A stretch of DNA of 64,000 nucleotides from IMG/VR virus record IMGVR_UViG_3300016486_001578; one strand, given 5' to 3'. The notes under the pieces are model-generated. The model worked only from the letters and a program-made list of their open reading frames with translations, did not search any database and was not told the origin of the DNA. Positions 3,238 through 40,666 of this stretch are shown here, in pieces. The position numbers were made by a program, and so were the translations under genes. This DNA is from a virus. Taxonomy: Duplodnaviria > Caudoviricetes. Positions within the stretch are counted from its first letter, which is position 1. Each line of letters begins with the position of its first letter.

Positions 3238-3803
3238 TTATTTTTATTTCATAATAGTTAGTTGATTACTCCGCATCCTCTGTATTTTTTTCATTAGATA
3301 ATATCCAATTCATTGTTCCGGATGGAATACCCATACCTACATATGATCCCAATTTATCCATAGCACATGTTATATTATCAGCAATAATGTGTGTTTCTTT
3401 CTCAACACCATTATCAACATATATACATTTATATAATAATTTACCCTTTACTTTAGAAATATCTATCATTTCAATAGATACTACAAAATTAACCCGACCA
3501 GATTTAGTGACGGATTTTATTAATTTATTTTTTCCCATTTTTTTATTATTTGATTGATTATTTTTAATCTCTTATTTTGACTTCCATCTTTAGTTGTCCT
3601 AAAAATATAACTTCCAGTGATTGATTACTATATTTGATATATTCACTTTTTATCGATTCTAAGTATTGTGGTGTTCCCTCAAGTTGGGTTCCTTTGTATT
3701 TATGATCAATAAGATAGTCTACTGCATCATTTCTAGTCATAGTTTTGTTAGTAGCTTTATTACTTTCTTCCATCGTATATATATTATAATTCATAAAATC
3801 GAT

Positions 3804-4223
3804 TCATTTTTTAGTCCTACAATGTGGACCAATACCTATTTCTATACTTTTAGCATCACTTAGTTTACGATTACAACATAAACACCTACCTAAATGGTAT
3901 AATTTAACCTTATCGTTTAGAAAATCAAATTTTTTCTGATTAGCCATTCTCAATACCCAAGAAATAGCAATAGCACTATTTGATTTATTTTCTACTTTAT
4001 CCTTTATTAGACTTCCGTTGTTATAAAACCCTAAATAAGTGAAGGTTAGATAACCAGTCTCAACATACACATGTGTGTATACATTACCATTGAATGGTTT
4101 AGTTTTTATTTTAAATGTGAAATCTTTATTAGTCTCTTTGGATTTAACTGTAAATATAGTTGTTGATTTATCCTTAAGTTCTATTACGTGATTTAATTGT
4201 TCTGAGCTAAATTCTTTTACCAT
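3804..4223 (-). CDS. DUF6011-like phage protein (C-terminal Zn-binding)
   Basis: GRCLCCNRKLSDAKSIEIGIGPHC. Confidence 0.65.
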   Translation of the reverse strand: MVKEFSSEQLNHVIELKDKSTTIFTVKSKETNKDFTFKIKTKPFNGNVYTHVYVETGYLTFTYLGFYNNGSLIKDKVENKSNSAIAISWVLRMANQKKFDFLNDKVKLYHLGRCLCCNRKLSDAKSIEIGIGPHCRTKK

Positions 4224-34028: not shown

Positions 34029-34139
34029 TTTAGGGAGATTGATGGAAAGCCCGGTATTATTTTAGATAGGCTAAATTCATTCTTAGAAGACATAGGAGAA
34101 GAATCGGTTAATAAAGTTGAAGGATATATTAATATATAG
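34029..34139 (+). pseudogene. 3' remnant of a third LRR gene copy
   Basis: 34029-34097 is identical to 35498-35566; reads FREIDGKPGIILDRLNSFLEDIG...VEGYINI*. Confidence 0.85.
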
Positions 34140-34143
34140 TTTA

Positions 34144-34716
34144 ATGAAGCACCTAAAAATATTTGAAAACTTTAATTCTGATGAGAAAATTCATGAAATT
34201 TGTAAAAAGCATAATATCAAAAATTATACTATAAATAAAGACCATTCAATAGATGTTGATGGTGATGTTTATTTATATAGAAAAGGATTAACTAAAATTC
34301 CACTGAAGTTTAGAAAAGTTAGTGGATATTTTGATTGCGATGATAACAGTTTAACTTCATTAGAGGGCTCTCCAACTTCAGTCGGTGGTGATTTTTATTG
34401 TGATAATAATAAATTAACTTCATTAGAGGACTCTCCAACTTCAGTCGGTGGCCATTTTTATTGTGATAATAATAAATTAACTTCATTAGAAGGTTCCCCA
34501 ACTTCAGTCGGTGGTTATTTTTATTGTAATGATAATCCAGTCAATGAGGTATACAATCTATTCAATGATAAAGACAAAATAGAACTTCTAAACGACTATG
34601 ATATCTTTAGAAAGGTTGATGGAAAACCTGGTATTATTTTAGATAGACTAAATTCATTCTTAGAAGACATAGGAAAAGAGAGCGTCACTAAAGTTGAAGG
34701 ATATATTAATATATAG
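34144..34716 (+). CDS. Leucine-rich-repeat protein, 3 x 21-aa repeats
   Basis: MKHLKIFENF; repeat SVGGxFxCxxNxLTSLExxPT (63 bp). Confidence 0.9.
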   Translation: MKHLKIFENFNSDEKIHEICKKHNIKNYTINKDHSIDVDGDVYLYRKGLTKIPLKFRKVSGYFDCDDNSLTSLEGSPTSVGGDFYCDNNKLTSLEDSPTSVGGHFYCDNNKLTSLEGSPTSVGGYFYCNDNPVNEVYNLFNDKDKIELLNDYDIFRKVDGKPGIILDRLNSFLEDIGKESVTKVEGYINI

Positions 34717-34720
34717 TTTA

Positions 34721-35608
34721 ATGAAGCACCTAAAAATATTTGAAAACTTTAATTCTGATGAGAAAATTCATGAAATTTGTAGAAAATATAATATCGAAAA
34801 TTATACTATAAATCCGGATGGATCAATAGATGTTGATGGTAGTGTTTTTTTATATAGAAAAGGATTGACTAAAATTCCACTGAAGTTTAGAAAAGTTAGT
34901 GGATATTTTGATTGCGATGATAACAGTTTAACTTCACTAGAGTTTGCTCCAACTTCAGTCGGTGGATATTTTAATTGTTCTAGTAATAAATTAACTTCAT
35001 TAGAAGGTGCTCCAACTTCAGTCGGTGGCCATTTTTATTGTGATAATAATAAATTAACTTCACTAGAGTTTGCTCCAACTTCAGTCGGTGGAAATTATTA
35101 TTGCCATGATAACCGATTAACTTCATTAGAAGGTTCCCCAACTTCAGTCAGTGGTAATTTTTATTGCCATGATAACCGATTAACTTCATTAGAAGGTGCT
35201 CCAACTTCAGTCGGTGGAGATTTTAATTGCAATTATAATCAATTAACTTCATTAGAAGGTGCTCCAACTTCAGTCGGTGGCGGTTTTTATTGTTATAATA
35301 ATCAACTAACTTCATTAGAAGGTTCCCCAACTTCAGTCGGTGGTGATTTTTATTGTGATGATAATCAACTAACTTCATTAGAAGGTTCCCCAACTTCAGT
35401 CGGTGGTGATTTTTATTGTGATGATAATCCAGTCTATGAAGTCTGGAAATTATTTAAAGATTTGGATAAAATAGAAATTCTAAGTGATTCTGACATCTTT
35501 AGGGAGATTGATGGAAAGCCCGGTATTATTTTAGATAGGCTAAATTCATTCTTAGAAGACATAGGAAAAGAAAAGGTTGATGGAGTCAAAGGATATATAA
35601 ACTTATAG
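34721..35608 (+). CDS. Leucine-rich-repeat protein, 8 x 21-aa repeats (tandem paralog)
   Basis: Same N- and C-caps as 34144-34716 plus five more repeats. Confidence 0.9.
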   Translation: MKHLKIFENFNSDEKIHEICRKYNIENYTINPDGSIDVDGSVFLYRKGLTKIPLKFRKVSGYFDCDDNSLTSLEFAPTSVGGYFNCSSNKLTSLEGAPTSVGGHFYCDNNKLTSLEFAPTSVGGNYYCHDNRLTSLEGSPTSVSGNFYCHDNRLTSLEGAPTSVGGDFNCNYNQLTSLEGAPTSVGGGFYCYNNQLTSLEGSPTSVGGDFYCDDNQLTSLEGSPTSVGGDFYCDDNPVYEVWKLFKDLDKIEILSDSDIFREIDGKPGIILDRLNSFLEDIGKEKVDGVKGYINL

Positions 35609-35938
35609 ATTAATTTTAATTATCTTGTATGGGTAATCCCTTTTATCATAGAACCTCATCCTTTCTTTAAAATGTGTATAGTGTATATTATTGAAATTAT
35701 CATGACTAAAGACATCAACCAAATCGAATATAGTTGCTTTCTTTTTATCAGCGTGTAGCCTAAGTGATCTACCAATAGATTGTATTATTATTTGCTCAGA
35801 CTTAAAAGAATCAGCAAAAATAACATTAAATATAGCATTTATTGATACACCGGTACTCAGTGTACCAAAACTCGCAATTAAAACCTTAGTCGCCCCTTCT
35901 TCTCTAATCTCTTTTCTTTTATCTATTATTCTCGCCAT
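35603..35938 (-). CDS. uvsW: UvsW-like helicase part 3 (motifs V-VI)
   Basis: KVLIASFGTLSTGVSI...QSIGRSLRLH...TIFDLVD. Confidence 0.85.
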   Translation of the reverse strand: MARIIDKRKEIREEGATKVLIASFGTLSTGVSINAIFNVIFADSFKSEQIIIQSIGRSLRLHADKKKATIFDLVDVFSHDNFNNIHYTHFKERMRFYDKRDYPYKIIKINL

Positions 35939-35941
35939 TAT

Positions 35942-36853
35942 TTATTTTATTGTTTCTATTAAGGAATCTAATAAATTAACGTTTTCATTATTTAAATGTT
36001 TTTCTAAAACCACATTATTAGTGTCTCTATATTTTCTTATTAGGTGTTTACTAAAGTTGTATTTTCTAACTACATCTTCCATATTTTCAAATATTTCAAT
36101 ATCACCGCCTTTTTTAATTATTTTTATCTTAGTCCCACATCTCTTTTTTCTATTTTTCATCTTTTCTAGGTAATCTAGGTCTTTCCATTTTTTCTTTATT
36201 TTTTTACCAGCATCTAATCTTTTAGACTTATCTTTATTTATAAGTGTCATCTTATTTTTAAAATTTCTCCTATAATCATCATCTAAGTTATCCCATCTAT
36301 CTTTAGTTTCTTTTCTTTTCTTCTCAACATTATCGGGGTTAGAATAATATTCATTCATTTGATTTGATTTTTCTAATCTCTTCTCTTCTGTCCAACATGA
36401 TTTCATTTTTTTACAAAATTTTTCATAATCATCATCACTTATATTTTCCCAAAATATATTAATTCTTTTTCTTTGTATTTCTGATGAATATCTATTGTCA
36501 AAATATTTGTTATTATTAGAATAGTTAATCATATATTCCTTATATTTTTCTGAATTCCTAAATTCTTTCATCATATCTGATTTCCCTTTTCTCCAATTAT
36601 TATATTTTTCTTTATCTTTCTTTAATTTAACCCAACCCTTTTTTGCAGCATTTGATGTTTCTTCTGAATTCTTATAATAGTTCATCATCCAATTTAATGG
36701 TCTTTGATATTTTCTTATATTTATTGCTTTAAATATCCATAAATGTGATAATTTATGATCCTCATAATCTAATTCAATTATATTCCACTCCTCATTTTCA
36801 TATTCTGGGAATGTCGATCTTGGTAGAATATGATGTTTTTCTGAATAATCCAT
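35942..36853 (-). CDS. Putative HNH homing endonuclease (real start probably 36971, via A7 frameshift)
   Basis: EKHHILPRS...NIIEL...DHKLSHLW; repetitive K-rich DNA-binding region. Confidence 0.75.
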   Translation of the reverse strand: MDYSEKHHILPRSTFPEYENEEWNIIELDYEDHKLSHLWIFKAINIRKYQRPLNWMMNYYKNSEETSNAAKKGWVKLKKDKEKYNNWRKGKSDMMKEFRNSEKYKEYMINYSNNNKYFDNRYSSEIQRKRINIFWENISDDDYEKFCKKMKSCWTEEKRLEKSNQMNEYYSNPDNVEKKRKETKDRWDNLDDDYRRNFKNKMTLINKDKSKRLDAGKKIKKKWKDLDYLEKMKNRKKRCGTKIKIIKKGGDIEIFENMEDVVRKYNFSKHLIRKYRDTNNVVLEKHLNNENVNLLDSLIETIK

Positions 36854-37007
36854 TTTCTCTTTTAATTCATAATTTATGAGTGTTGATATATATTTATCTA
36901 GATATTTATCATCATCTATATTTTTGTGCTTTTTTTATAAATTGATCCTTAATGAATTCATAATTTCTCATATACTATATATAAATTAACCATTACCCCC
37001 GTAGATA

Positions 37008-37793
37008 CTATTTTTTAAGTGTTTTAATAAAATCATCACTTATATCATCATATGGTGTTATATCTTCCGCCTTTTTATATTTACCATCACTAAGTAATAT
37101 CATAAAATTGGATTTAACATCTATTTCATAGTCGCCAAAATTTAGAATAGTGTATTCTACTTTGGTTTTAGTTTTCTCCATTTCTTTCTTAATTATCTCT
37201 CTATTCTTACCACTAATAGAACCATCAATATAATAAAATTCCTTATCCGGTATCTCCGATTTTAATTTATTTAATAATCTCTTACCATGTTCAATTGTAT
37301 AAAATAAAACTAATGTATTACCATCACATTTATCTACTATTTTCTTTATAAAATCTAATCGCTTTTCGGATATATGTATATAATCCTTTTCTAAACCGAA
37401 GGCTTCTTTTCCAAGACCGGCCTTTCGAACTTCGTTTATCTTATCTCCAAAATCAGAATCATTATGGTTTATTATCACTGCTTTTATCTCCATTGGCGTA
37501 ACAATTCCTTTTTTCTTTAATTCTGTTGCGGAAACTTCTGTTATTTTGGGCCCAAGAACAGATTGTATAGTTAATATCTCACAAGTGTCTTCTTCTGGTA
37601 TAGTACCACTAACACCAAATCTAGAATAAGCATGTCCGAATGTTTTTCCTAATATTTTAGTATATGTCTTGGCTTTAGACTGATGACAATTACTAACACA
37701 AACACTATTTGCAAAATAGTTATGATTGTCCTTTATCCTTAAATTATAAACATCACCACTATATCCTATCTTTTTAATACACTTAATCTTCAT
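37008..37793 (-). CDS. uvsW: UvsW-like helicase part 2, with split-intein C-part (aa 1-35) and a 53-aa intein-like tail
   Basis: MKIKCIKKIG..GDVYNLRI..NHNYFAN.V.VSN/CHQ; RFGVSGT (motif III); YYIDGS. Confidence 0.9.
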   Translation of the reverse strand: MKIKCIKKIGYSGDVYNLRIKDNHNYFANSVCVSNCHQSKAKTYTKILGKTFGHAYSRFGVSGTIPEEDTCEILTIQSVLGPKITEVSATELKKKGIVTPMEIKAVIINHNDSDFGDKINEVRKAGLGKEAFGLEKDYIHISEKRLDFIKKIVDKCDGNTLVLFYTIEHGKRLLNKLKSEIPDKEFYYIDGSISGKNREIIKKEMEKTKTKVEYTILNFGDYEIDVKSNFMILLSDGKYKKAEDITPYDDISDDFIKTLKK

Positions 37794-38608
37794 TTATATC
37801 TTTTTAATTTTCTGATTATATTATCACCATCTGGTTGGTTATCTAATAGGTGTATGAATTTTTCTTTATTCTCTATTATCCAATCTTCTGTTATGTAAAT
37901 AAACTCATAACCATTTAATAAACACCATTCTTCGGCATATCTTCTTTTTGTTGTATTTTTTGATAGACCAATAGTTGATTTTGGTTTTATCTCATATAAT
38001 ATTTTTTCATCATAATCAACAAAATCTATTATATAATTATGTGATATATCTTTAAATAAATATTCTATTCGTATATCTTCGTATAATAGTTTGGGGTTAC
38101 ATAGATGAAAGAAAGCCTCCCAGGAAGATCTATATCTAAATTTTTTATTATCAATGGTTAAGTATGAGAAACTACCGTGCCAGCTATTTGTAATGTTTGG
38201 AGTGAACGAACCATTTTTTATATTAGCCTTCATTTTCTTTGAATTTTTTCTACACATATTTTTGAAAGTTTCCTCAGACATTCTATGTGATGTGTTATTT
38301 TCACCCATTTGTCTAATTGATATACTTTTGTTATAACAATTATCTGAACAAAAACTATTAAATCCAAAATTTTCTTTATTTCTAATACCGACAAATATTC
38401 TTTCATTATCACATTCATCAATTTGGCATTTTTTTTCAATATTTTTAAGGTATGCGATTACATTTTTTATTGATATTTTAAAATTAAAATTTATGTTATT
38501 TTTTTCTAAAAATAACATAAATTTCTCTTCTTTCTCCTTCCGATTGAATATTGAGTATCTTTTTTCAAATATTAATTTATATATTTTATCCTTTTGCTTT
38601 TGATCCAT
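37790..38608 (-). CDS. Putative homing endonuclease (TnsA-like PD-(D/E)XK)
   Basis: YRSSWE...YE.IRIEY...YIIDF...EIKP; upstream CSDNC Zn motif; lies between the split-intein halves. Confidence 0.7.
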   Translation of the reverse strand: MDQKQKDKIYKLIFEKRYSIFNRKEKEEKFMLFLEKNNINFNFKISIKNVIAYLKNIEKKCQIDECDNERIFVGIRNKENFGFNSFCSDNCYNKSISIRQMGENNTSHRMSEETFKNMCRKNSKKMKANIKNGSFTPNITNSWHGSFSYLTIDNKKFRYRSSWEAFFHLCNPKLLYEDIRIEYLFKDISHNYIIDFVDYDEKILYEIKPKSTIGLSKNTTKRRYAEEWCLLNGYEFIYITEDWIIENKEKFIHLLDNQPDGDNIIRKLKRYK

Positions 38609-38625
38609 GTCCTTCTGTGCTTTTG

Positions 38626-39729
38626 TTATATATTAAAATTAATATCCAATATTTCTTCATCAACATTTAATTCATCGACCCTTTTCCATTCACCACTTAT
38701 TAGTTTTACTTTATGATTGCCTGTTATTTTTAATACTTCTCCGTTATCTAGTGATATCTCATATATATCATCAGATTTTGTTAGATTCTTATAAACAAAA
38801 TCAACTTCTTTATTTTCTATTAGGAGGCTTTCTTCATTTATGGTTTTGACAAAATCGCCTATTTTTATTTCGGATATATTTTTTTTTGATCCATCTGACA
38901 TAGTTATTTTAGTAGATGGGTGCAAACACTCATCAGTTATCACCGTATGAAACTGTTTAAAGAAGCTTTTTGGCCACTTATCTAGTGATTGATAAGTTCC
39001 TATGTATATGTTAGCATCTTTTGTTCCGGTGTGTTTTCTTGGCTTCTCCGACATTATCTCCTCAACTCTTATATCACAAGCAGTATATTTTACTTCTTTT
39101 GTTAATATAGCGTCTAATTTAGCATCTCTTACTTCAATTAAATTATTTATACCATGATTATACTCAACTATATTATCATAAAATTGTGTAACTAATGTTA
39201 TTGATGGTACTATTATCAAGAATTTAGCACTTTTGTCTATCTTATGTAATGTATAAAACATCACGATTGATATTATCAGTGATTTTCCACCAGATGTGGC
39301 AACTTCGGCCATACAATATCTATTTTTTAGAATTTTATAAGCACTCTCTACTTGATGATCATATGGAGTAAATGATATCCAATCTCCACTCTTTGTCTTT
39401 ATTTTATGATTTTTGAAAAATTCATCACAAAAATCTTTCACTTTCTCTAAAGTAACATCTCTATTTATTGGGAAGTCTTCTTTATTTTCTAAAATGAAAG
39501 GAACGCCTATTTCCTGACAAGCTCTAAGTGATTCTTTCCAAAGGCCTAAATTTATCTTACCATCTCTAAAATATGAATTTTTGCCATTCCAAACACCCAT
39601 CTTAACCAATGGCATATATTTATATCCCTTAACATGTCTTGTTAACCAAAGATCAAGCTGGTGATACTCTATTCGTGTTGCCTCACTAACAACTATCTCT
39701 TCTTTTTTCTTATCATATCTAAATTTCAT
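38626..39729 (-). CDS. uvsW: UvsW-like SF2 helicase part 1, with split-intein N-part (aa 268-367)
   Basis: PYDHQ, ATSGGKS (Walker A), IIVPSITLVTQ, TYQSL, VITDE/CLHPST...ITGNHKV...WKRVDEL. Confidence 0.92.
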   Translation of the reverse strand: MKFRYDKKKEEIVVSEATRIEYHQLDLWLTRHVKGYKYMPLVKMGVWNGKNSYFRDGKINLGLWKESLRACQEIGVPFILENKEDFPINRDVTLEKVKDFCDEFFKNHKIKTKSGDWISFTPYDHQVESAYKILKNRYCMAEVATSGGKSLIISIVMFYTLHKIDKSAKFLIIVPSITLVTQFYDNIVEYNHGINNLIEVRDAKLDAILTKEVKYTACDIRVEEIMSEKPRKHTGTKDANIYIGTYQSLDKWPKSFFKQFHTVITDECLHPSTKITMSDGSKKNISEIKIGDFVKTINEESLLIENKEVDFVYKNLTKSDDIYEISLDNGEVLKITGNHKVKLISGEWKRVDELNVDEEILDINFNI

Positions 39730-39824
39730 ATTAACTTATATATTAATATTATGATTTTTCCACCGGTTTTTTACAAAAAAGGGAAGGAGACTTATGTAAT
39801 ATATACATAAAAATAAATTTAAAC

Positions 39825-40208
39825 ATGAGTATTTTATCATTCCTAAAAAATCTTTTTACTAAACAAGAAGTTAAACAAGTCGAAGAGACCAAACAAGAAG
39901 TTAAACAAGAAGTTAAACAAGAAGTTAAACAAGTTGTTAAAAAAGTTGAAGAGACCAAACAAGAAGTTAAGCAAGAAGTTGAGCAAGTTAAAGAAGTTGT
40001 TGAAGCAAAGAAAGAAACACCCAAGGCTACGCCTAAGAAAGCTACAGCAAAGTCACCTAAGAAAACTACAACTAAAAAGAAGACATCCACAAAAGAAAAA
40101 CCAGTAACGGCAAAGGATATTAAATCAAAAGCTAAAGAAACTAAAGAAGATAAACCTAAGGCAAAAAGAAAATATACAAAAAGAAAGCCTAAGACTCCTA
40201 AGAAGTAA
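39825..40208 (+). CDS. Low-complexity protein: KQEV repeats + histone-H1-like basic tail
   Basis: Repeated KQEV (12-bp unit), then K/T/P-rich tail. Confidence 0.7.
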   Translation: MSILSFLKNLFTKQEVKQVEETKQEVKQEVKQEVKQVVKKVEETKQEVKQEVEQVKEVVEAKKETPKATPKKATAKSPKKTTTKKKTSTKEKPVTAKDIKSKAKETKEDKPKAKRKYTKRKPKTPKK

Positions 40209-40229
40209 TAGATTAATGAGAAAAATGAT

Positions 40230-40255
40230 AAAACCACCATATTATGGTGGTTTTT
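40230..40255 (+). terminator. Intrinsic terminator
   Basis: AAAACCACCAT-ATT-ATGGTGGTTTTT. Confidence 0.8.
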
Positions 40256-40324
40256 CTGTTTTGGTGTAATTTAAATTAAAAGGGTTTTTTAATTTAATAT
40301 ATAATAAAAAATAAATAAATTAAT

Positions 40325-40666
40325 ATGAAAACTAAAGTCGAAATCGAAATAGGGGATTATGAAATCCAAATTGAAGAAGTAGATGGTGTAATATCTGTAA
40401 GAGCTGAAAAAGATGATGAGGTTGTTGAAGAATTTTCTATCACTACCGAAGAAGTAGAAGGAGAAGACTCAGAGATGGGTGATGATGAAGAAGGTGATGA
40501 GATAAAAGGATTCGGTGAATTCGGTGATGAAGAAGAAGATTTTGGATCTGAAGATCTAGAAGGCGAAGCTGGAGAAGGCGAAACCGAAGAATCTGAAATG
40601 GATATCGAAGAATTAGAAGACGAAGGTACACTAGAATCTTTTCAATCTTTTATAAGTAAAAAATAA
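40325..40666 (+). CDS. Highly acidic protein, possible prohead core/scaffold component
   Basis: E/D-rich; ends LESFQSFISKK; TAATATATA at 40295. Confidence 0.5.
   Translation: MKTKVEIEIGDYEIQIEEVDGVISVRAEKDDEVVEEFSITTEEVEGEDSEMGDDEEGDEIKGFGEFGDEEEDFGSEDLEGEAGEGETEESEMDIEELEDEGTLESFQSFISKK

Follow-up and report, generated by a model that had tools for sequence, protein, structure and literature searches.

The 64,000-nucleotide (nt) stretch of viral DNA analysed here (the window; IMG/VR record IMGVR_UViG_3300016486_001578, Caudoviricetes) carries the gene of a UvsW-like repair helicase of a giant phage, which is broken at two places. Five minus-strand open reading frames (ORFs) follow one another head to tail at this locus, in the order helicase part 1, endonuclease, helicase part 2, HNH endonuclease and helicase part 3, and no terminator-like sites were found between them (Table 1). 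Part 1 matches Pfam DEAD/ResIII plus Hint/Intein_splicing, residues 2–35 of part 2 match the last 34 positions of Pfam Intein_splicing, and part 3 matches Pfam Helicase_C; Pfam UvsW_N scores above its cut-off in the relatives P0266 and P0270. The intein matches in parts 1 and 2 identify the first break as a true split intein, lodged in the DExH motif (DE/CLHPST... and ...VSN/CHQ; 37689–39729, minus strand). A distant relative (P0314) has a continuous 135-amino-acid (aa) mini-intein at the same site.

At the second break, where a selfish endonuclease gene lies, the helicase similarity of part 2 ends at T208 (...KKEMEKT) and the ORF continues for another 53 residues (the tail). Part 3, whose whole ORF spans 35603–35938 on the minus strand (111 aa), opens with 14 extra residues (the head, MARIIDKRKEIREE) ahead of GATKVLIASFG, the motif V strand, and has intact motifs V and VI. 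A preliminary description of this DNA, made from its letters alone, had pointed out the tail, the head and the HNH endonuclease gene between them; all three are present as described, with the start of the endonuclease gene corrected and a frame shift recognized in it. It had further proposed that tail and head are a Hint-domain remnant that holds the helicase fragments together without splicing. We find that the pair is homologous to a Hint domain and has lost its catalytic residues, that it occurs sporadically among relatives, is under purifying selection and is retained after loss of the endonuclease, and that it probably acts as a non-covalent clasp.

Table 1 Features of the interrupted helicase locus, in order of transcription (window coordinates)
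Feature	Coordinates	Strand	Description
Helicase part 1 with genuine IntN	38626..39729	-	367 aa; IntN of 100 aa (CLHPST...), TGNH block B
Free-standing endonuclease gene of the first break, between IntN and IntC	37790..38608	-	TnsA-like N-terminal match; PHROG 15427 endonuclease
Helicase part 2, whole ORF	37008..37793	-	261 aa
Genuine IntC of the first break	37689..37793	-	35 aa, residues 1–35 of part 2; ends VSN, then Cys
Helicase part 2 proper	37170..37688	-	+1 Cys after IntC to ...KKEMEKT; end of RecA1 and first half of RecA2
Tail, K209–K261 of part 2	37011..37169	-	53 aa; homologous to intein block B region and remaining second half of N-part
Stop codon of part 2	37008..37010	-	At the point where inteins bear the endonuclease domain
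HNH-type homing endonuclease gene	35942..36971	-	Longest called ORF 35942–36853; true start ATG 36971
Head, N-terminal extension of part 3	35897..35938	-	14 aa; colinear with first strand of intein C-half
Helicase part 3 proper	35603..35896	-	Motif V strand (G)ATKVLIASFGTLSTGVSI, motif VI, C-terminal end of UvsW-like RecA2

Thirteen tails were built into a profile, and 1.84 billion representative proteins were searched with it at a threshold of E ≤0.001. The search returned 61 proteins, of which 59 are helicase fragments; it also matched two T4-like portal proteins (E 4.5e-4 and 6.4e-4 for the whole library), the first with two HNH-containing inteins and the second with at least three. In the first portal protein the profile falls on block B of both inteins, and in the second on four block B segments, with portal V-D-C-T-P-D-H-x-x-M-L-R-D-G-S-Y-K-E-A-K-D-L opposite tail I-D-V-K-S-N-F-M-I-L-L-S-D-G-K-Y-K-K-A-E-D-I. 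These HNH-inteins of portal (gp20) genes (P0306, P0310) are the best sequence matches to the tail, in an ungapped alignment that starts with the strand ahead of block B and stops just short of the HNH domain, with about 31% identity by eye over 49 residues; unlike the tail/head pair, they are complete and continuous and keep Cys1, TPDH and HN followed by Cys or Ser. A hidden Markov model (HMM) of the tail scores block B of every intein tested, including that of the window's own IntN (KITGNHKVKLISGEWKRVDELNVDEEILD), which bears out the earlier impression that the tail resembles the second half of IntN. The tail/head family matched nine Hint N-halves in hhalign with a probability of 93.7 (E 1.9e-7, 45 columns), and the window tail alone matched a Hint N-half profile at E 3.9e-5. 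Conversely, when every six-frame ORF of the window was scanned with a Hint N-half HMM, only the true IntN and the tail matched (E 1.4e-4 for the tail), and no further tail-like or Hint-like ORFs were seen in the 64 kb. Other comparisons gave less: BLASTP placed the tail only weakly (E 0.041) on the window IntN, at block A instead of block B, a Pfam scan of the 13 tails at E up to 10 returned nothing relevant, and the tail profile matched only the AXH domain of ataxin-1 among PDB sequences (E 0.75, non-significant).

To bring in the head, natural tail and head pairs were joined and compared with mini-inteins stripped of their endonuclease (hhalign). The alignment was colinear over 54 columns (E 6.5e-6); it begins at the strand ahead of block B and continues past the site of endonuclease insertion into the first C-half strand, with head K-I-T-K-I-T-G-K-R-K-E-I placed on N-H-K-V-V-K-V-E-W-L-V of the C-half. 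None of 200 column shuffles reached the observed score of 34.9 (mean 10.7, standard deviation 2.2, maximum 17.6). It is this colinear alignment, by itself, that speaks for the claimed likeness of the head to the first IntC strand. The break between tail and head always falls where inteins carry their endonuclease.

The tail had also been considered as a decayed copy of the downstream exon, as KVEYTILNFGD... resembles KVLIASFGT... by eye, in MAFFT and in tblastn. This origin was rejected: the tail HMM gave no positive score on the motif V region of five helicases and four part 3 proteins.

Structure models were made with AlphaFold2 from an alignment without insertion-less rows (A6). In the model of the RecA2 half of a relative in which tail and head are continuous (P0021, residues 300–606; mean predicted local distance difference test score (pLDDT) 90.4), the insertion is predicted to form four strands and one helix. 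A helix ending ...RME is followed, at most two residues on, by the 11-residue strand that starts the tail, and the head is a 10-residue strand (pLDDT about 90) leading within two residues into the motif V core strand; the best structural match of the model is T4 UvsW (2oca_A; Z 21.6, root-mean-square deviation 2.5, 194 residues). Modelled alone, the insertion had a pLDDT of 81.8, with 83–93 in the tail part. In an exhaustive structural search of this isolated insertion against 48,161 representative solved chains, the best 11 matches were all inteins (Z 3.3–4.5 over 44–53 residues), aligned to the second half of the N-part (49–98 of Npu DnaE, 40–120 of gp41-1), and about half of the top 50 Foldseek matches had the Hint fold (inteins, bacterial intein-like (BIL) domains and hedgehog). 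The derivation of tail and head from a Hint domain is well supported by these intein-led fold searches together with the intein matches of the tail HMM, the hhalign comparisons and their shuffles, and the reciprocal match within the window.

What the pair retains is a central piece. Its 67 aa correspond to about positions 64–119 of a 145-residue mini-intein, with no counterpart of block A with Cys1 or of blocks F and G with the terminal Asn. The junction EMEKT is followed by KTKVEY, and no Cys, Ser or Thr is conserved at the start of 43 diverse tails. The TxxH of block B, which is TPDH or TGNH in true inteins, is replaced by KSNF in the window and mostly by K-S-D/N-x in close relatives. The heads of three phage groups, which end ...IREEGA before TKVL in the window, HKQGA before VLL in Vibrio phages and AEDI before TVL in the Dickeya phage LIMEstone1, have no terminal Asn and no conserved +1 nucleophile, and the residues at both junctions are unconserved between these groups. 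The absence of Cys1, the TxxH histidine and the terminal Asn/+1 nucleophile, already remarked on in the preliminary description, thus extends from the window to 43 diverse tails. With blocks A, F and G and the catalytic residues lost, protein splicing of parts 2 and 3 is not expected from the sequence.

Comparison with relatives indicates that tail and head belong to a single insertion, about 67 residues long and sporadic in its distribution. In the closest public relative, a 642-kb uncultured phage (LR756502.1), a single ORF encodes the helicase and reads EMEKT-DGR-VKVLIASFG across the junction. Among the 120 best database relatives, about 100 are insertion-less proteins of 536–538 aa with the short junction EMEKT-DGKV-KVLVASYG (also in L001), and T4 UvsW likewise lacks the insertion. 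Relatives occur in four states: most are without the insertion; a few have it continuous, in single proteins of 601–606 aa (P0021, with 14 member sequences, and P0022); many are split without an endonuclease gene; and others are split with a homologous HNH gene, as in the window, L007 and LIMEstone1. The endonuclease-less splits lie inside the insertion, with a 48-nt spacer between the parts in L009 and an ATGA overlap of the two genes in the cultured Vibrio phages D506 and K476. The same split that the preliminary description suggested looking for in related uvsW loci is thus found in L007, L009, D506/K476 and LIMEstone1. Of the 59 helicase matches to the tail profile, 58 end at most 12 residues past the tail, so the split form is the usual state; the remaining one (P0304) runs on for 25 residues. 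The preliminary description had named a contiguous loop in homologues as an outcome that would speak against it: a few homologues are indeed continuous (P0021, P0022), but what they contain is this same sporadic insertion and not an ordinary loop.

As called in the window (35942–36853), the HNH endonuclease gene matches PHROG 655 and 12434, HNH-type homing endonucleases; its true start at ATG 36971 (MRNYEFIKDQFIKK...) is separated from the called frame by a frame shift in an A-run near 36930–36940 (36912–36971, minus strand), after which it reads on as KHKNIDDDKYLDKYISTLINY...MDYSEKHH. Both frames match the N-terminus of an intact 321-aa homologue in L007, and the frame shift could mean that the element is decaying, that the homopolymer was misread in sequencing or that slippage occurs here. 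The product shares 51% identity with its positional counterpart in L007 and a full-length relationship with I-LimI of LIMEstone1 (E 3e-7), and has no detectable similarity to the HNH domain (Pfam HNH_3) of the portal inteins. Its stop codon lies 3 nt before the part 3 start codon, and only 42 nt separate that start from the helicase match. The extensions are kept both where the endonuclease has been lost (L009, D506, K476) and where it is frameshifted (the window).

Eighteen tail positions are invariant in 13 relatives, and the motif h-x-h-x-F-G ... L-S-N-G-x-x-K-x-A-K-D-I-T-x-D-D-D-I-D-D-x-W-I is kept in 43 tails whose helicase parts are only 20–30% identical. Between the window and the Vibrio phages, the tails are 49% identical over 41 residues and the helicases 30%. 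Synonymous codon differences in the tails of relatives are about as numerous as non-synonymous ones; between the window and L007, 27 codons are identical, 15 differ synonymously and 10 non-synonymously. By these measures, the tail is under strong purifying selection at the protein level.

Two further features of this gene are seen in relatives. L007 has a second tail/head pair at another site of its helicase, before the ...VRVEEVMS segment (L007:3042–5050): part 1 ends ...YYLEIELEDNTILKLKPGDKIITKNRGEIFAKDLTELDEV*, a 413-aa DUF723 endonuclease-like gene follows, and part 2 resumes from MKIKRISKVKIDDD. In hhalign, this second tail matched the region around Hint block B (probability 53, E 1.4e-4), and P0270 has, by eye, a continuous insertion near the corresponding place. 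Separately, the part 3 gene in L010 (4939–5040) and L007 (6868–6960) is interrupted precisely at the Tyr–Gly step of motif V (ASY/GTLSTG) by an insert of 4 nt (TAAC) or 7 nt (TGAGGAC) that includes an in-frame stop and that the window lacks. The head ORF of these relatives ends ...KVLVASY* with the remainder in the +1 frame, and a +1 shift at the stop would yield ASY-N-GTL or ASY-ED-GTL; the insert explains the many 92–93-aa 'part 3' clusters in databases.

We consider it likely that a three-part mobile cassette, composed of tail, HNH homing endonuclease gene and head, made the second break in uvsW, and that tail and head are a non-splicing Hint relic clasping parts 2 and 3. The relic comprises the central 60–70 Hint residues, namely the block B hairpins, the short helix that precedes the site of endonuclease insertion and the first C-half strand, and has lost block A with Cys1, the block B Thr/His, blocks F and G, the terminal Asn and the +1 nucleophile. 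The tail has an acidic patch (EDITPYDDISDDF), and the first nine residues of the head have a net charge of +3. Split inteins associate first through anionic IntN and cationic IntC segments (review PMC11766414). With parts 2 and 3 presumably translated separately from one transcript, the acidic tail may bind the basic head in a step like this electrostatic 'capture', and the head strand may pair with the first long tail strand. Such pairing would re-form the RecA2 helix–loop–strand connection just before motif V without a peptide bond, so that the endonuclease would be tolerated in an essential gene at little cost, with neither RNA nor protein splicing. In the uninterrupted helicase, the helix end and the core strand start are joined by a loop of only about 5 residues; the two long strands of the insertion therefore leave and re-enter at the same spot, from which we infer pairing as a ribbon, between chains when the protein is split. 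In the primary study of 'capture and collapse', the segments said to associate are the second half of IntN together with the initial part of IntC; we take these to be the ones that the relic keeps. A clasp would be the best-supported mechanism for tail and head, with indirect support from conservation and from the in-context fold of P0021, whose confident head strand is the one structural hint.

Two lodgings of homing endonucleases in essential genes are well known, self-splicing introns and inteins. A third, in which tails reassemble the fragments, has had a biochemical basis in a single case, Aeh1 NrdA, and a comparative one in a single study of T4 MobA. Aeh1 nrdA is likewise an essential phage gene cut by a free-standing HNH-family endonuclease gene, mobE, without RNA or protein splicing; the C- and N-terminal tails of NrdA came with the mobE insertion and are essential for activity (Friedrich 2007; Crona et al. 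2011, PMC3045599), and the authors speculated that tails and mobE are possible degenerate-intein remnants (PMC3045599). The charges of the Aeh1 tails are reversed relative to the window, the C-tail being basic and the N-tail acidic, and Hint homology was not shown for them, whereas here it is demonstrated, with uvsW as the host gene, in a system known from sequence. MobA combines an HNH endonuclease with conserved C-terminal and N-terminal extensions of ORF1 and ORF2 (gp39/gp60; Manning and Atkins 2022, bioRxiv 10.1101/2022.08.31.505936); its endonuclease has in many cases decayed or disappeared while the extensions invariably persist, and secondary fusions are also on record (bioRxiv 10.1101/2022.08.31.505936). 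It differs from the present cassette in having in addition a 50-nt bypass cassette and extensions of about 44 aa each, described as unique. The end of T4 gp39 (L013, minus strand, 3778–3990; EWFTFELNGDTIIVNENDEVQINGKWITVGELRKNL) and the start of gp60 (2853–2990; MKFVKIDSSS) look, by eye, like tail and head; hhalign of the single gp39 tail against the tail family gave a probability of 2.8 and E 0.016 over 27 colinear columns, which does not establish homology, and comparison of the gp39 tail with Hint gave no clear match either. Fractured genes with split inteins (Dassa et al. 2009, PMC2677866) share the gene order, the single strand and the phage-like DNA, and the first break of the window helicase is such a case; those inteins keep the whole Hint fold and the splicing residues and ligate their exteins, whereas the pair at the second break keeps only the central part.

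Several observations weigh against a Hint-derived clasp. The whole-library E-values of the intein matches are only about 5e-4, the structural Z-scores are low, and Foldseek with the insertion gave no match at E 0.001 or better. In our reading of the models, the structural search is informative through the specificity of its ranking and not through its absolute scores, which are low because the insertion piece is small. The head strand seen in the P0021 model was not reproduced when the insertion was modelled alone, where the head became a low-confidence helix (pLDDT about 52), and over all 14 residues its net charge is only +1. In Aeh1, the tails are needed for dimerisation of the heterodimer and not for binding of fragment to fragment (PMC3045599). 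Finally, continuous forms exist (P0021, P0022), and the insertion could therefore serve some purpose other than joining fragments.

The last point leads to the alternative that we take most seriously, although we think it unlikely: that the insertion is an accessory domain with its own function (DNA or partner binding), which was continuous first and later offered a permissive site to the endonuclease, any Hint likeness being old or irrelevant. It accords with the 14 continuous members of P0021 and with P0022, with the confidently predicted fold, with a tail conservation equal to that of the helicase core and with the different role of the Aeh1 tails. However, 58 of 59 tail-bearing helicase clusters are split, most close relatives and T4 UvsW do without the insertion, very distant phages have it together with homologous HNH genes, and the break always coincides with the intein endonuclease position. 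Distinctly less probable is that tail and head are neutral leftovers, with the fragments either joining through the RecA2 core alone or making a dead helicase. Split RecA-like domains do sometimes reassemble unaided, and the frame shift in the window endonuclease suggests a decaying element, but residues stay invariant down to about 25% helicase identity and synonymous change is in excess, cultured and viable phages that have lost the endonuclease still have tail and head, and motifs V and VI of part 3 are intact.

A group I intron with an endonuclease ORF, in which tail and head would be meaningless translated edges and RNA splicing would restore the helicase mRNA, seems highly improbable. 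The authors of LIMEstone1 listed its uvsW interruption as a putative intron, with I-LimI, without a test (PMC3296691), and HNH or GIY-YIG genes are common in phage introns. No Rfam match was found, however, at E up to 1 in window positions 35000–40500 or at E up to 0.1 in five related loci (L002, L004, L007, L009 and L010). The tight spacing of endonuclease stop, part 3 start and helicase match in the window and the short L009 spacer also speak against it, and the ATGA-overlapping Vibrio genes and the continuous in-frame forms leave no room for an intron. Together with conservation and selection at the level of amino acids, these features make an intron at the second break unlikely on sequence grounds. 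Equally hard to credit is a still active, very small non-canonical split intein ligating parts 2 and 3: the pair is Hint-derived, and Cys1-less inteins (classes 2 and 3) and very short split fragments are known (review PMC11766414), but only about 67 of roughly 135–145 Hint residues are left, every conserved splicing position from the starting Cys/Ser/Thr and the block B His to blocks F/G, the terminal Asn and the +1 nucleophile is missing, and continuous forms would retain the insertion in the mature protein.

A non-covalent clasp of Hint origin thus remains the reading we favour. By the profile comparisons, what appears new here is that the tails of an endonuclease cassette are traced to a Hint domain, an origin that had only been speculated on; our literature search found no paper showing Hint homology for such tails. 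More tentatively, and with somewhat less than even confidence, we suggest a general third way in which endonuclease genes carry only the association module of an intein, made up of the second N-part half and the first C-part strand and stripped of catalysis, and clip the products together non-covalently, so that a single Hint-derived class would include the uvsW clasp, the second pair of L007 and perhaps also the tails of T4 gp39/gp60 and Aeh1 NrdA. The Hint origin of the uvsW tails offers an evolutionary route from intein, through split intein with free-standing endonuclease, to non-splicing clasp. It also corrects the 'putative intron' annotation in cultured Dickeya phages, and small natural heterodimerising peptides of this kind might find use as protein-assembly tags. 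The LIMEstone-type Dickeya phages and the Vibrio crassostreae phages have cultured hosts, making the clasp idea directly testable.

Two minor observations were made in and beside the locus. The stretch KRKEIREE of the head (35897–35920) resembles the native helix KREIIKKEMEK that precedes the tail (37170–37200, minus strand), and MAFFT aligned the two; the likeness may be a small host-sequence duplication carried by the cassette or a chance outcome of Lys/Glu-rich sequence. Directly downstream of the helicase locus, on the opposite strand, lie two adjacent paralogues (34117–35608, plus strand) with 3 and 8 leucine-rich-type repeats (...SLEGSPTSVGGxFYCxxNxLT...) and near-identical N- and C-termini.

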